Shown here: piece by piece, positions 4,398 through 7,324 of the stretch
Numbering within the stretch: position 1 is the first letter of the stretch
How the letters are laid out: each line of letters starts with the position of its first letter
Assembly (NCBI GenBank): GCA_001825665.1
Contig: MHXZ01000018.1
Coordinates: 972 to 64,971 of the forward strand
From: Planctomycetes bacterium GWF2_41_51
Lineage (GTDB): Bacteria; Planctomycetota; Phycisphaerae; Sedimentisphaerales; UBA12454
Direction of reading: 5' to 3'
Length of the DNA: 64,000 nt
Translations under genes and position numbers: made by a program
The notes under the pieces: generated by a model
Told to the model about the DNA's origin: nothing
The model's input: the letters and a program-made list of their open reading frames with translations, nothing else
Database searches by the model: none

Positions 4398-4413
4398 TGG
4401 CACGGCGTTTGCT
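4398..4413 (+). promoter_or_regulatory. Sigma54 (RpoN) -24/-12 promoter
   Basis: TGGCACG-GCGT-TTGCT matches the TGGCACG-N4-TTGCW consensus exactly. It sits about 50 nt upstream of the ATG at 4465. Confidence 0.7.
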
Positions 4414-4464
4414 TTTATATATAGCGAGGGCGAGAAAAAGTCGTCTTGAGAAAGAAGGTTTTAA

Positions 4465-4884
4465 ATGCTCGTCCTTGTTAAAGCAAACGTTTTAGTCTTG
4501 GGATTTGGAGGAAGAAGCGATGCCTTGAAGGCGTTACCGATTCGCAAGTTGTTTGCTGAAACTGGTTTTGAAGCCAGTCGTTCTTTAAAAAATGAAAAAG
4601 TGGATGGTGTGATTAGTCTATGGAATTTGCCGGATGCACCGGCTGGAAAGTTCCTGCTAAACTTAAGGTTGGCAAAACCTTATTTGCCTATTATTGCGGT
4701 GGTTGATGCTGACAATATTGAGCAGGAAATCGCAGCCAGAAGTATCGGCTCAACAGCCGTTTTAAGTAAAAACGTCGATAACGATGTTCTTAAACGGACG
4801 ATTATAGAAATTCTTGGACTTGGCGACACCAAAGAAATCCAGAAACTCTGTGCCATTGCAGACGATGAAAATCGTCATATCTGA
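4465..4884 (+). CDS. Small receiver-like (CheY-fold) protein, probably a pseudo-receiver
   Basis: The alternating beta/alpha pattern and LPIIAVV..AVLSKNVD resemble beta4/beta5 of REC domains. By-eye alignment places GG instead of the acidic pair and no Asp at the phospho-acceptor position. Confidence 0.4.
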   Translation: MLVLVKANVLVLGFGGRSDALKALPIRKLFAETGFEASRSLKNEKVDGVISLWNLPDAPAGKFLLNLRLAKPYLPIIAVVDADNIEQEIAARSIGSTAVLSKNVDNDVLKRTIIEILGLGDTKEIQKLCAIADDENRHI

Positions 4885-4976
4885 CACGGGCCAAAGACCG
4901 AACAGTTAAATGGACCCGATTTATCGATGGCAGGCACTAGTTTATAGGGAGGGAGCGCAGAGAAAAGAAACAATAA

Positions 4977-5414
4977 CTTCTTCTCCTCCTCCAAGGTGGG
5001 TTGTGATCGGACAGTGATAGATGATTACAGCCCCCAGAGAGCAAGCATGGCTTAATGCCATGAGATTATAGGGCTCAGGAAGTTTTCTCCTCCTCCCAAA
5101 TGAGATGGGCTTGATACGAACAGTGATAATTCGGTTGAGCCCAACTCGAGAGCAATCACGGTTGTTGGGACCGTGTTTATTATAGAGGCCGTCTGGTATT
5201 GAATCAGGCGGATCGCTCACGATGAGTTTTCTCCTCCTCCCAACGATGGGTTATGACTGGACAGTGATAGATAGTTGTAACCCTATCGAAATCAGCCATG
5301 GCATAGCCATGAAGATATAAAATAATTCATTTTCTCCTCCCAGAGAAATAGGGTTGTAACCGAAAGTGAATATCGGCTACAACCCTTTGTTAAAAGACAT
5401 AGTCCTTGACTATG
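4977..5414 (+). repeat. Four imperfect tandem modules (starts about 4977, 5083, 5227, 5330)
   Basis: CU tracts are CTTCTTCTCCTCCTCCAA, TTTTCTCCTCCTCCCAA (x2) and TTTTCTCCTCCCAGAG. Hairpin 1 lies at 4998-5033, 5107-5142, 5248-5283 and 5351-5385, with the loop core CAGTGATA in modules 1-3 and AAGTGAATA in module 4. Hairpin 2 lies at 5046-5062, 5157-5175, 5297-5311 and 5398-5414. Confidence 0.85.
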
Positions 5415-5454
5415 AGTGAATAATCTGCTAAGGAATGAAGCATCACCCAATGTA

Positions 5455-5506
5455 GGCCCCGGCCATAAGATCACTGTTCGGTCTTAGGTCGGGGCCGGTT
5501 TTTTTT
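5455..5506 (+). terminator. Rho-independent terminator
   Basis: A 10-bp GC-rich stem (GGCCCCGGCC / GGTCGGGGCC, one G-U) is followed by GG and T8. Confidence 0.8.
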
Positions 5507-5626
5507 GCGCATTGAAAAAGGTCTTATTTTCAATCAGAACTATCGATATTATAAGACCAAACTAAAACTATTGCATTTCAGTAATAACAACTCTAAAATC
5601 AGTCGTCTTTTTTTAATGGAAATGGT

Positions 5627-7324
5627 ATGAAAAATATCGATCTTGAAAAATATTCTTCAGCTTTCACTTTGGCGGATATGGAAATTTTTGTATTTCCGGA
5701 ATTGATGTATTCGCTGCTTCTTGCCAATATAATGAGTCCTTTGATTTGGAAATGGCGAGAGGATAAATCATTCAAAAAACTCGAAGGCAAAGACCCATAT
5801 AAAAAATTGATGCGGCTCCGCCAGTTTATCATGGATGAATTTGAATTTAATCTCGACCTTGAAACATGGGGATTGACGGATAAAAAATCAGAAATAAAAA
5901 GATTTGAAAATTTTCTCACAGAGAAGGAGATTTCCGAAAGTAATGCTCTGTTCGGATACGAAGGCGATAAATATTATTATGATGTAGATATCAGAAAACA
6001 TTTCGGCCTCGATAAATATACTACCGATATAATTCCCTACTGGAAAACCGAAACTGTCGAAGCTATGAACGCCTTTCGGCATAAGAAAGGCTATAAAACG
6101 GGCGCAGGCGAATGTGTTTCGCTGTCAACTTTGTATGCGGCGGCAGCGTTTATTGTCTGCGGCATACCACTTGAAGATATTTTTTTAATTCTCACTCCTT
6201 TGCATTCACAGAATTATATAGATATCAACGATGGCATTATTACAAACAACAGAAGACTCGTAACCAAGGCGATGTGGTTCAACGGCACTGAAACTTCCGA
6301 CAAGGCCCAGCGTGCTCTGCGCAACGAACAAATAACAATGGTCGCTCATACAAGCGGGCTCATCCATTGCCTGTATAAAGACGCTACAATTAACAAAACC
6401 GAATACCAAAAATTCCTCGGCAAGCTTAATAATTATCTTTATTATCCTCTCGAACCGTTAGGCGTCGCCAATTTCCTGCGCAGCAAAGGTCAGTACCAAA
6501 AACATTTCCAGTTCTGCCGTGACTGCCGCGGCAACGCGCAATTTATCAAGGCCGAAAAACTGTTTTCGTATGAGCATGGCAGCAATTTCAGGGTTTGCGA
6601 TCCTACCCATGAAAAACTTCTTGCGGAAGTGCACGAGGAAGATTTCTCAAATCACGAATATGCAAAAAGAATCCGCTGCGACCAGTTTAAGGAATATATG
6701 GGCAAAAAGAAACCGGACATAAACACTGAAGATGGGCGTAAAGAACTTGCGCACGTTTTGTCAGATTATATTCCCGATTCCGAAAAATTCGTCGCCGAGC
6801 TTTACGATTTTCTGCATATCGAACCGAGACTGCCGAGTGAAGATAAAAATTATATCAATGGCGAACCGATAAAAATCACGCCGGATATGAGCAGAGAGCA
6901 GATAATCGATTATCTCAAAAGCATAAGAGATAAAAACACAATTGCCGATTTAGCCTTTTACGCATACCGTGATATGGAAACCTGCGATTGGCAGCCCTAT
7001 ATAAAATCCGCAATTGAACGAAGTCCTGTATCGATTGGAATGACTAAAGATAAATCAATACAGGAATGCTTCGATTGGCTTGCAAATATGCCCAATGAAT
7101 CGATATATGATAACAAAAGACTTGCCCAGCCCGATGAAGTTGCAAATTATGGCCGCGGCGATGGTATCGAAAAAGCAATCACCCTCGCAAATATTATCCA
7201 TAAAAGAGAACCAACCAAAAAAATAGATATCAATATCAATAAAGAAAAAGTTGTTTTGACTGCCGACGAAAAATTTGAATTTGAAAGCCCAAAAGGATTT
7301 GAGAAAGATATAATAATATCTTAA
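5627..7324 (+). CDS. Hypothetical protein with a transglutaminase-like cysteine-protease core
   Basis: GAGECVSLSTLYAAAAFIVCGIPLEDIFLILTPLHSQNYIDIND fits the Cys...GIP...His...Asp order of the transglutaminase-like fold. The rest is unrecognised. Confidence 0.45.
   Translation: MKNIDLEKYSSAFTLADMEIFVFPELMYSLLLANIMSPLIWKWREDKSFKKLEGKDPYKKLMRLRQFIMDEFEFNLDLETWGLTDKKSEIKRFENFLTEKEISESNALFGYEGDKYYYDVDIRKHFGLDKYTTDIIPYWKTETVEAMNAFRHKKGYKTGAGECVSLSTLYAAAAFIVCGIPLEDIFLILTPLHSQNYIDINDGIITNNRRLVTKAMWFNGTETSDKAQRALRNEQITMVAHTSGLIHCLYKDATINKTEYQKFLGKLNNYLYYPLEPLGVANFLRSKGQYQKHFQFCRDCRGNAQFIKAEKLFSYEHGSNFRVCDPTHEKLLAEVHEEDFSNHEYAKRIRCDQFKEYMGKKKPDINTEDGRKELAHVLSDYIPDSEKFVAELYDFLHIEPRLPSEDKNYINGEPIKITPDMSREQIIDYLKSIRDKNTIADLAFYAYRDMETCDWQPYIKSAIERSPVSIGMTKDKSIQECFDWLANMPNESIYDNKRLAQPDEVANYGRGDGIEKAITLANIIHKREPTKKIDININKEKVVLTADEKFEFESPKGFEKDIIIS

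Follow-up and report, generated by a model that had tools for sequence, protein, structure and literature searches.

We analyzed a 64,000-nucleotide (nt) stretch of Planctomycetes bacterium GWF2_41_51 (contig MHXZ01000018.1, positions 972 to 64,971 of the forward strand; hereafter "the window", whose numbering is used throughout) and concentrated on positions 4887-5506 of its + strand. This segment consists of four tandem homologous modules bounded by a 5' hairpin and a strong intrinsic terminator. Directly upstream lies a gene for a 139-residue protein with a CheY-like fold (the receiver gene), preceded by a putative sigma-54 promoter, and a gene for a 565-residue protein follows downstream. 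The comparisons described below indicate that the modular segment almost certainly represents a conserved structured non-coding RNA family that is absent from Rfam 15.

In every module, a pyrimidine-rich CU tract comes first. A long hairpin (H1), whose loop is CAGUGA, stands next and is connected through the linker GAGAGCAA to a short hairpin (H2); 3' of each H2 there is an AU-rich spacer. The CU tract has the consensus UUUUCUCCUCCUCCCAA, is unpaired, and includes CCUCCUCCC, which occurs exactly in modules 2 and 3 and as CCUCCUCC and CUCCUCCC in modules 1 and 4, respectively. A repeat finder placed the tract copies at 4977, 5081, 5225 and 5325, with start-to-start distances of 104, 144 and 100 nt, in agreement with the periods of 103-144 nt given in a first-pass annotation of this DNA, and it recovered H1 as three copies of 37 nt. 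Allowing one mismatch at most, TTCTCCTCCTCC had four matches in the window, all at 4978-5240; shuffled sequences gave an expectation of 0.12, and none of 100 shuffles reached four. As had been noted earlier, the H1 loops of modules 1-3 have ACAGTGATA in common, with AAGTGAATA in module 4. The H1 loops carry CAGUGAUA, whereas the loops of H2, which follows the pattern CAYGG...CCRUG, are variable.

We scanned one genome per species, 185,579 species genomes in total, for the pattern of a CU tract, a gap, and CAGTGA. The scan returned 44 loci, 22 of which belong to metagenome-assembled genomes classified as Planctomycetota, Phycisphaerae, Sedimentisphaerales or Anaerohalosphaeraceae, with a single locus each. 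The remaining matches were isolated in unrelated phyla; about 20 chance matches were estimated from the length of the pattern and the size of the collection, and those chance-type matches that were inspected looked like ordinary coding sequence. Metagenomes, scanned with the 3' element as anchor, contributed another 27 true loci. The RNA is hence present in 22 GTDB species genomes and 27 metagenome contigs, about 50 loci of Phycisphaerae/Sedimentisphaerales. Where the downstream gene encodes a homologue of the 565-residue protein with 85, 77, 73, 70 or 68% identity, the RNA was present in all cases, and at 65% and 63% identity the loci contained neither the RNA nor the upstream receiver gene.

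The + strand of the segment folds with a predicted energy of -223 kcal/mol (z = -7.8), compared with z = -5.3 for the - strand. We built a covariance model of the module from 73 sequences; it matched only Planctomycetota loci apart from one weak chance match, and nothing else in the window. With filters off, the modules of the window received 96.9, 93.2, 72.5 and 37.5 bits on the + strand, and the - strand reached 8 bits at most. The assignment of the functional strand made in the first-pass annotation is therefore borne out, and the G-U pairs in H1 of module 1 favour the + strand as well. In the alignment fitted by the model, 96.6% of the cells were paired and 12 of 15 pairs had changed on both sides; there were 101 cells with two-sided changes against 25.9 in shuffles, and sliding the partners collapsed the signal. 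Since paralogous modules are mixed in this alignment and it was fitted to the structure, a second test used 33 non-redundant full-length orthologues aligned by MAFFT without such fitting, with the 125 pairs curated for the window RNA mapped onto them. Here 87% of the cells were paired, compared with 37-48% with partners slid, and 38 of the 125 pairs had changed on both sides, compared with 12-18 with partners slid and 22.8 in shuffles. Covariation clearly supports both hairpins of modules 1, 3 and 4, and in module 2 it clearly supports H2, in line with the compensatory stem changes first noted between the modules of the window. MAFFT misaligned the 5' hairpin and H1 of module 2, and RNAalifold missed the 5' hairpin, for which 37 distinct versions were folded singly instead. 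In module 2, H1 is shorter in the window than in the consensus and the misalignment lowers its column counts.

Around these stems, which vary with compensation, the single-stranded parts are invariant, namely the tracts, the CAGUGA loop, the linker GAGAGCAA and the 3' element GAAGCAUCACCCAAUG, with the CU tracts as the most conserved single-stranded elements. Judged by sequence comparison, this is the pattern typical of functional RNAs. For GAAGCAUCACCCAAUG we found no convincing pairing partner or known motif. The terminator and a predicted helix between the Shine-Dalgarno (SD)-like sequence GGGAGGGAG and the tract of module 1 are essentially invariant and gain nothing from covariation; in the latter, 97-99.5% of the cells are paired and all columns are invariant.

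None of the Rfam families attained its gathering score in the window. More permissive searches, which covered the region 4700-5700 (E <= 10) and five homologous loci, gave only matches at chance level and far below thresholds (RybB, mir-67, StyR-3, CRISPR repeat, ncS54). The features of the locus are collected in Table 1.

Table 1. Features of the receiver gene and the modular RNA, with the observations on which each is based. UTR, untranslated region; MFE, minimum free energy.
Feature	Position	Strand	Basis and remarks
Putative sigma-54 (RpoN) -24/-12 promoter, TGGCACGGCGTTTGC	4398..4412	+	53 nt upstream of the receiver ATG
Predicted 5'UTR/start-region hairpin, GAGGGCGAG (4427-4435) with codons 2-4 CUCGUCCUU (4468-4476)	4427..4476	+	Pairing read from the sequences
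139-aa single-domain pseudo-receiver, CheY-like fold, phosphoacceptor Asp absent	4465..4884	+	Pfam, family profile
Small hairpin GACGAU-GAAA-AUCGUC just 5' of the receiver stop codon (TGA 4882-4884)	4861..4876	+	Pairing kept across loci
5' hairpin, stem CGGGCC / GG(A)CCCG, conserved loop AAAGACCGAACAGUUAAAU	4887..4918	+	At least 6 stem sequences in 37 distinct versions, loop core CCGAACAG kept
SD-like GGGAGGGAG, predicted partner of the CU tract in module 1, plus GAGAA 4960-4964 / UUCUC 4981-4985	4947..4955	+	RNAalifold consensus
Module 1 CU tract, CUUCUUCUCCUCCUCC	4977..4992	+	Invariant, 33 non-redundant orthologues
Module 1 H1, 13 bp, loop GGACAGUGAUAGAU	4995..5035	+	99.1% of cells paired, 3 pairs changed on both sides
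Module 1 H2, CAUGGC-UUAAU-GCCAUG, then AU-rich spacer AGAUUAUAGGG	5046..5062	+	4 of 6 pairs changed on both sides
Module 2 CU tract, GUUUUCUCCUCCUCCCAA, includes CCUCCUCCC	5082..5099	+	Invariant across orthologues; repeat family
Module 2 H1, basal GAG/CUC, 10 + 4 bp, loop CAGUGAUAA	5102..5147	+	MFE fold; module model 72.5 bits
Module 2 H2, CACGGU-UGUUGGG-ACCGUG	5157..5175	+	100% of cells paired, 2 of 5 pairs changed on both sides
Extra variable hairpin H3 between modules 2 and 3	5189..5211	+	Present, absent or expanded in orthologues
Module 3 CU tract, GUUUUCUCCUCCUCCCAA	5226..5243	+	Repeat family; orthologue alignment
Module 3 H1, basal CGAU/AUCG plus 11 bp, loop GGACAGUGAUAGAU	5244..5288	+	91% of cells paired, 4 of 13 pairs changed on both sides
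Module 3 H2, CAUGGC-AUA-GCCAUG, then AU-rich spacer	5297..5311	+	96% of cells paired, 4 of 6 pairs changed on both sides
Module 4 CU tract, AUUUUCUCCUCCCAG, shorter, least conserved	5329..5343	+	Repeat family; orthologue alignment
Module 4 H1, 13 bp with one mismatch, loop AAGUGAAUA	5350..5386	+	84% of cells paired, 7 of 11 pairs changed on both sides
Module 4 H2, CAUAGUC-CUU-GACUAUG	5398..5414	+	90.5% of cells paired, 3 of 7 pairs changed on both sides
Invariant single-stranded element GAAGCAUCACCCAAUG	5437..5452	+	Identical in 33 of 33 non-redundant orthologues
Intrinsic terminator, stem GGCCCCGGCC / GGUCGGGGCC, upper stem UAAGAUC / GGUCUUA, loop ACUGUUC, then U8	5455..5506	+	
GCGCA motif	5507..5513	+	Right after the U tract
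Gene of the 565-aa protein	5627..7324	+	

The arrays of relatives contain three to six modules. Some orthologues (L004, L041, L056) have a degenerate module 4 or another sequence in its place. The extra hairpin H3, where present, has four of its six pairs changed on both sides, but its support is weaker, with 65.5% of its cells paired and gaps in most rows. The basal stem of H1 in module 3 covaries between CGAU/AUCG, CGAA/UUCG and CGAG/CUCG. Some relatives have a tandem duplication of about 300 nt that comprises a remnant of the 3' end of the receiver gene, the 5' hairpin, GGGAGGGAG and module 1 (L011 2832-3879, L018 2970-4021 and L044 4010-5034, all on the - strand; also L056, L062 and L075). 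L044 keeps the hairpin loop in both copies; in L011 and L018 the upstream one is decaying. These duplications show how the number of modules changes.

The segment would not be a dedicated RNA at all if it were a dispersed repeat of the repetitive extragenic palindrome (REP) or miniature inverted-repeat transposable element (MITE) type, a gene on the minus strand, or a riboswitch-like leader of the 565-aa gene. We regard this as extremely improbable. Dispersal, which the first-pass annotation had named as the finding that would speak against an RNA, does not fit with one locus in each of the 22 genomes and with a covariance model that finds no other site in the window. ENA annotates a 92-aa open reading frame (ORF) at 4942-5220 on the minus strand, antisense to modules 1-2, and this strand carries GGAGGAGG, which resembles an SD sequence; however, the ORF is interrupted by stops and frame changes in orthologues and the module model stays at or below 8 bits on that strand. 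By this comparison the gene call is spurious, and as no other ORF is conserved, the earlier statement that the segment contains no credible coding sequence holds. The 565-aa gene follows the RNA in 16 loci, but a strong terminator separates the two, the gene is missing from seven loci with the RNA, where the downstream gene differs, and homologues occur without the RNA in L005 and L008. The 565-aa protein, hypothetical and highly conserved in Phycisphaerae, has more than 6,000 homologues and no Pfam domain except for a sub-threshold Alba-like match at residues 500-539. The GCGCA motif right after the U tract is conserved in most loci, even with a different downstream gene.

The partner of the RNA is the receiver gene, which lies directly upstream in all 23 loci with sequence at this position. 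Pfam Response_reg matched the 139-aa protein with 26.4 bits, under the cut-off of 30.2, and the profile of its family matched CheY with E = 7.6e-6. The residue opposite CheY D57 is variable (L52 in the window protein), and other active-site residues are missing as well, with KAN at the position of the acidic pair D12/D13, V for T87, and S at the position of K109 in most members. The protein thus lacks what defines a REC domain and, as far as its profile tells, is a pseudo-receiver that retains a CheY-like fold. The family comprises 113 proteins, is lineage-specific, and all members have about 135-150 residues. Its invariant motifs are SLKNE, W-x-LPD and QEIAARSxG. The small hairpin before or across the stop codon stays paired in its variants GAUGAU/AGUCAUC and AACGCU/AGCGUU, the latter with U5 behind it in L006 and L007, and partial termination or processing may occur between the receiver ORF and the RNA.

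Upstream of the receiver gene, the element at 4398-4412 is the only exact TGGCAC-N5-TTGC in the window, and it occurs at the same relative position in at least 21 loci bearing the RNA. With its GG-N10-GC core and conserved position, it has the properties of a sigma-54 promoter; transcription would then depend on RpoN, which implies control by an enhancer-binding protein. The hairpin in the 5'UTR probably masks the start region of the receiver gene. Its sequence is conserved across 21 loci, including synonymous sites of MLVLV, with a compensatory case in L035 (CGAU/AUCG). Its extended purine arm GAGGGCGAGAAAA is complementary to the CU tract with one C.C mismatch, and the arms of L035 (GGGAGGUAGGAG) and L087 (GGAGAGG) each match the tract type of their own locus.

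We also found distant relatives of the locus (L084, L085 and L087), in which the receiver is 42-49% identical and the module model detects modules at 24-37 bits with the layout CU tract, H1, linker, H2, AUAAnUAUA and a different terminator. In L084 (700-1660) and L085 (1960-3130) modules flank the receiver gene on either side, with the sigma-54-like TGGCAC-N5-TCGC ahead of the 5' modules, and in L087 (740-1220) the modules are only downstream of the gene. Because the promoter in distant relatives precedes modules that flank the gene on both sides, the receiver gene and the modules probably form one sigma-54-driven transcription unit. The 5' hairpin begins 3 nt past the receiver stop codon and covaries, and it is therefore predicted to be transcribed. 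Just upstream of GGGAGGGAG, GGCACU-N5-UAUAGG was considered as a second sigma-54 promoter and rejected, as it has the GG and lacks the GC of the -12 element. The gene order in 23 of 23 loci and the conserved promoter are at odds with the stand-alone RNA gene proposed initially and point instead to the 3' part of a sigma-54 unit that includes the receiver gene.

The terminator has the 10-bp, GC-rich stem and U8 tail that were described at the outset (5455-5464 / 5487-5496 with nine G-C pairs and one G-U; U8 at 5499-5506), in line with an intrinsic terminator. Its sequence is invariant in the approximately 50 loci; L039 and L040, which diverge most, are the only members whose lower stem covaries. 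The loop of the 5' hairpin (4891-4906) is complementary to the terminator loop (5473-5488) over 16 nt at 94%, within which lie the 13 perfectly matched nucleotides that had been noted between the two hairpins bracketing the array. This complementarity exists and is conserved. The terminator loop is also complementary to the H1 loops of modules 1-3, over 14-17 nt at 82-86%, with 11 nt at 100% in module 2, and it can refold locally into a 7-bp stem with the 7-nt loop ACUGUUC. The part of the terminator loop complementary to the 5' hairpin loop and the H1 loops is AUCACUGUUCGGUCUU. Two registers of at least 12 nt, AAGACCGAACAGU and ACCGAACAGUGAU, are retained in different subclades, and the 3' half of the loop shows no change even in loci that differ in the local partner of this half.

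An architectural RNA, in which AUCACUGUUCGGUCUU kisses the 5' loop or one of the four or five H1 loops and circles or multimers arise, would make use of these 10-16 nt of complementarity, of the two registers and of the constancy of the 3' half. Covariation cannot speak for it: the metagenome scan had left the terminator loop free to vary, and the loop was invariant in 27 of 27 new loci, so that no covariation signal was possible. The local 7-bp fold offers another use for the same nucleotides. Moreover, the AUCACUGUUCGGUCUU loop and the CAGUGA loop are both absent from the distant clade, which keeps the modules. The kissing-loop pair therefore appears to be a clade-specific addition to an ancient core of a pyrimidine tract and two hairpins, hence not the core function, and we consider a mainly architectural role very unlikely.

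What, then, might the RNA do? We see about an even chance that it is a multi-seed base-pairing riboregulator that forms the 3' non-coding part of a Phycisphaerae-specific sigma-54/receiver unit. The unit would be transcribed from the sigma-54 promoter through the structured 5'UTR, the receiver ORF and about 620 nt of modular RNA to the terminator. Pairing with purine-rich sites of the GGAGG type in mRNA leaders or ribosome-binding sites would involve the exposed CU tracts and perhaps also the H1 loops. The RNA could act either as one multivalent molecule or after endonuclease cleavage at the AU-rich spacers into modules of 100-140 nt; precedents for the two modes exist in ccaF1-CcsR1-4 of Rhodobacter and in the sigma-54-dependent NrsZ of Pseudomonas. 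The tract of module 1 is predicted to be pre-paired, and so masked, by the internal SD-like GGGAGGGAG, and the invariant terminator loop could kiss the 5' hairpin loop or any H1 loop and thereby close or mask the RNA. A candidate target is the 5'UTR arm GAGGGCGAGAAAA of the operon itself, predicted to mask the start region and almost fully complementary to the tracts: among 57 translation-initiation regions in the window, that of the receiver gene ranked third for the predicted duplex with the tracts (-20.9 kcal/mol; mean -11.6, sd 4.4). Co-transcription, processing, targets, the direction of regulation and the 5' end are all inferred here from sequence.

Several observations weigh against base pairing by multiple seeds. 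Neither the GGGAGGGAG/tract helix nor the kissing interaction has covariation support, because every column involved is invariant. In L006 and L007 a terminator-like hairpin with U5 stands right after the receiver stop codon (about 2128-2150 in L006), and a weak sigma-70-like TTGnnn...TATAGG between the 5' hairpin and GGGAGGGAG, with a spacing of 15-23 nt across loci, is a candidate internal promoter. The rank of the receiver gene as a target amounts to z ~ -2 only, with sequences of low complexity. An SD-like 4-mer, mostly AGGA, precedes 13 of 58 predicted genes in the window, and in 445 kb of related DNA few strong sites of the GGAGGAGG type occur near start codons, so that the set of targets may be small. 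Finally, the tracts of the distant clade, UUUUCUCCCCCC and CUCUCUCUCCUCUUCUUC, are CU-rich without the CCUCC core, which a protein reading pyrimidine tracts would explain equally well.

A further explanation is an effect on the receiver mRNA alone, without targets in trans. As a purely cis-acting UTR element, the modules would govern the stability or translation of this mRNA, for instance through pairing of the CU tracts with the purine-rich, start-masking 5'UTR arm or by shielding the mRNA from 3' exonucleases. The modules are always on the receiver unit, as a 3'UTR in the clade of the window or as a 5' leader plus 3' trailer in the distant clade, and GAGGGCGAGAAAA is complementary to the tract, with the arms of L035 and L087 matching their own tract types. 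Yet a 420-nt ORF would need far less for control in cis than about 620 nt of four to six repeated modules that have invariant loops and a dedicated, unchanging 3' element; the known analogues CcsR and NrsZ work in trans, and the complementarity is of low complexity and only third of 57. We judge this explanation improbable.

Because SD motifs are rare, strong targets are scarce and the CCUCC core is not kept in the distant clade, a protein sponge or scaffold stays a serious rival to the multi-seed riboregulator, although we think it somewhat unlikely. The modules would be multivalent sites, each made of CU tract, CAGUGA loop and linker GAGAGCAA, that titrate or assemble an RNA-binding protein. 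This protein could be the co-encoded pseudo-receiver or a binder of pyrimidine tracts, for instance Hfq, S1, a cold-shock protein or a protein of the RRM or KH type. Each RNA displays three to six single-stranded motifs that are nearly identical, the three invariant elements per module exceed the needs of a simple seed, and the distant relatives retain pyrimidine richness and not the CCUCC core. The RNA is also strictly linked to one small protein gene, for which there is a precedent in CcaF1, a protein that binds the small RNA (sRNA) array encoded with it (PMC8034643). On the other hand, no candidate RNA-binding domain is encoded nearby and the pseudo-receiver carries no known RNA-binding motif.

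Sponge RNAs such as CsrB, RsmY, RsmZ and CrcZ are several hundred nucleotides long, display many repeated short motifs in loops and spacers (GGA for CsrA/RsmA, CA-rich for Hfq/Crc) and end in a strong terminator. The RNA described here resembles them in its length of several hundred nucleotides, its repeated, displayed short motifs and its strong terminator. It does not appear to be a CsrA sponge, as GGA at the 5' edge of the H1 loops is not conserved and alternates freely with GAA, and no Csr/Rsm family of Rfam matched. We know of no protein in the Phycisphaerae lineage that reads CU tracts. Our results thus bear in two ways on the initial suggestion of a multivalent sponge for SD regions or a pyrimidine-binding protein: the invariant CU tracts fit with it, but a general SD sponge is weakened by the rarity of SD motifs (13 of 58 genes), and the more distant relatives have CU-rich tracts without the CCUCC core.

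A further possibility, which we rate as rather unlikely, is that the whole sigma-54-induced RNA of about 600 nt acts unprocessed. Its three to five CCUCCUCCC tracts would capture the few SD-bearing or purine-rich mRNAs of a lineage that otherwise hardly uses SD motifs, or an anti-SD-binding factor, with the kissing of the terminator loop as a gate and the pseudo-receiver as a partner. Kissing with the 5' hairpin or module loops would then close one molecule or link several. If this were true, the unit would represent a new class of RNA-protein regulatory module that evolved independently of Alphaproteobacteria.

Among known systems, the closest likeness is to the alphaproteobacterial sRNAs called cuckoo, CcsR, RSs0680, ar14 or NfeR1, which are defined by the anti-SD-like motif CCUCCUCCC and occlude ribosome-binding sites (PMC4615179, PMC8034643). 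They form 2-4 adjacent hairpins with the motif in each loop, in clusters of up to nine, and their stems show compensatory changes (PMC4615179, PMC8034643). In Rhodobacter, RNase E cuts the ccaF1 3'UTR at U/AU-rich sites and releases CcsR1-4 from a precursor of about 680 nt transcribed from an RpoHI/HII promoter (PMC8034643), and the cuckoo RNAs of Sinorhizobium lie in a 5'UTR (PMC4615179, PMC8034643). The RNA of the window shares with this group (RSs0680; SmelA075/A099; NfeR1; ar14, RF02344) the exact CCUCCUCCC once per structural module, tandem homologous modules of variable copy number with compensatory stem changes around a fixed motif, and an array tied to one small ORF, in the 3'UTR or 5'UTR depending on the clade, with an alternative-sigma promoter and one terminator. 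The precursor would be similar in size to the approximately 680 nt of ccaF1-CcsR1-4, and the AU-rich spacers resemble the RNase E sites that release CcsR1-4 (PMC8034643).

However, the motif stands in a single-stranded spacer 5' of H1 and not in a hairpin loop, the loops carrying CAGUGA instead. Each module has two unlike hairpins and a conserved linker, and dedicated conserved 5' and 3' elements with complementary loops frame the array. The partner ORF encodes a CheY-like pseudo-receiver and not a protein with DUF1127 (CIN1 subgroup), the promoter is of the sigma-54 and not of the RpoHI/HII type, and the hosts are Planctomycetota (Phycisphaerae/Sedimentisphaerales metagenome-assembled genomes) and not Alphaproteobacteria. 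The RF02344 covariance model gave no match at the gathering threshold in the window, none at E <= 10 over 4700-5700, and none in five homologous loci searched at E <= 1. We therefore do not place the RNA in the cuckoo family, since the motif lies outside the loops, RF02344 does not match, and the partner ORF, sigma factor and phylum differ; the relation is probably one of convergence or analogy and not of homology. The earlier view that the array belongs to no described RNA family thus stands with respect to Rfam, but CCUCCUCCC, the tandem layout and the link to a small ORF have a precedent in CcsR/cuckoo.

NrsZ of Pseudomonas aeruginosa is an RpoN/NtrC-dependent, processed RNA with three similar stem-loop modules, encoded in the intergenic region between ntrC and PA5126, and pairing through its loops opens a self-inhibitory hairpin in a 5'UTR (PMC4253122). 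The sigma-54 promoter, repeated stem-loop modules with a conserved loop motif and spacers, the proximity to a response-regulator gene and the predicted start-masking hairpin in the receiver 5'UTR are all reminiscent of it. In contrast, NrsZ has 226 nt, three stem-loops of about 40 nt with the loop motif ACAGGCAG, no CU tract, and its own promoter downstream of ntrC. The H1 loops here carry CAGUGAUA and not ACAGGCAG, and we found neither an Rfam match nor a sequence relationship.

Unpaired C/U-rich seeds that pair with SD regions or G-repeats are also found in RsaE/RoxS of Firmicutes, the loops of RNAIII, and RepG of Helicobacter. These are single short sRNAs with one to three motifs and not arrays of 600 nt, and they have no homology to the RNA of the window.

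Arrays of this kind are thus already known, as anti-SD-like seed arrays on a small ORF (CcsR) and as sigma-54-dependent modular sRNAs (NrsZ). What is new is the architecture of the family, with a seed outside the hairpin, two unlike hairpins per module, invariant ends with complementary loops, and a pseudo-receiver as partner, in the Planctomycetota. Its alignments and covariance model suffice to seed an Rfam family and to search metatranscriptomes.

To our knowledge, there are essentially no characterized riboregulators in Planctomycetota, and we are aware of almost no knowledge of riboregulation in this phylum. Among lineage-wide non-coding RNAs of Phycisphaerae, the RNA is one of the first to have good support. 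It is a large RNA of modular build with strong covariation and comes with a genetic partner and a predicted input. It poses the question of which role a mimic of the anti-SD sequence has in a genome that rarely uses SD motifs. The same CCUCCUCCC motif and operon logic as in CcsR/cuckoo, with no detectable homology, point to apparent convergent evolution and suggest a recurrent solution in which anti-SD-like seeds are arrayed in tandem on a small ORF.

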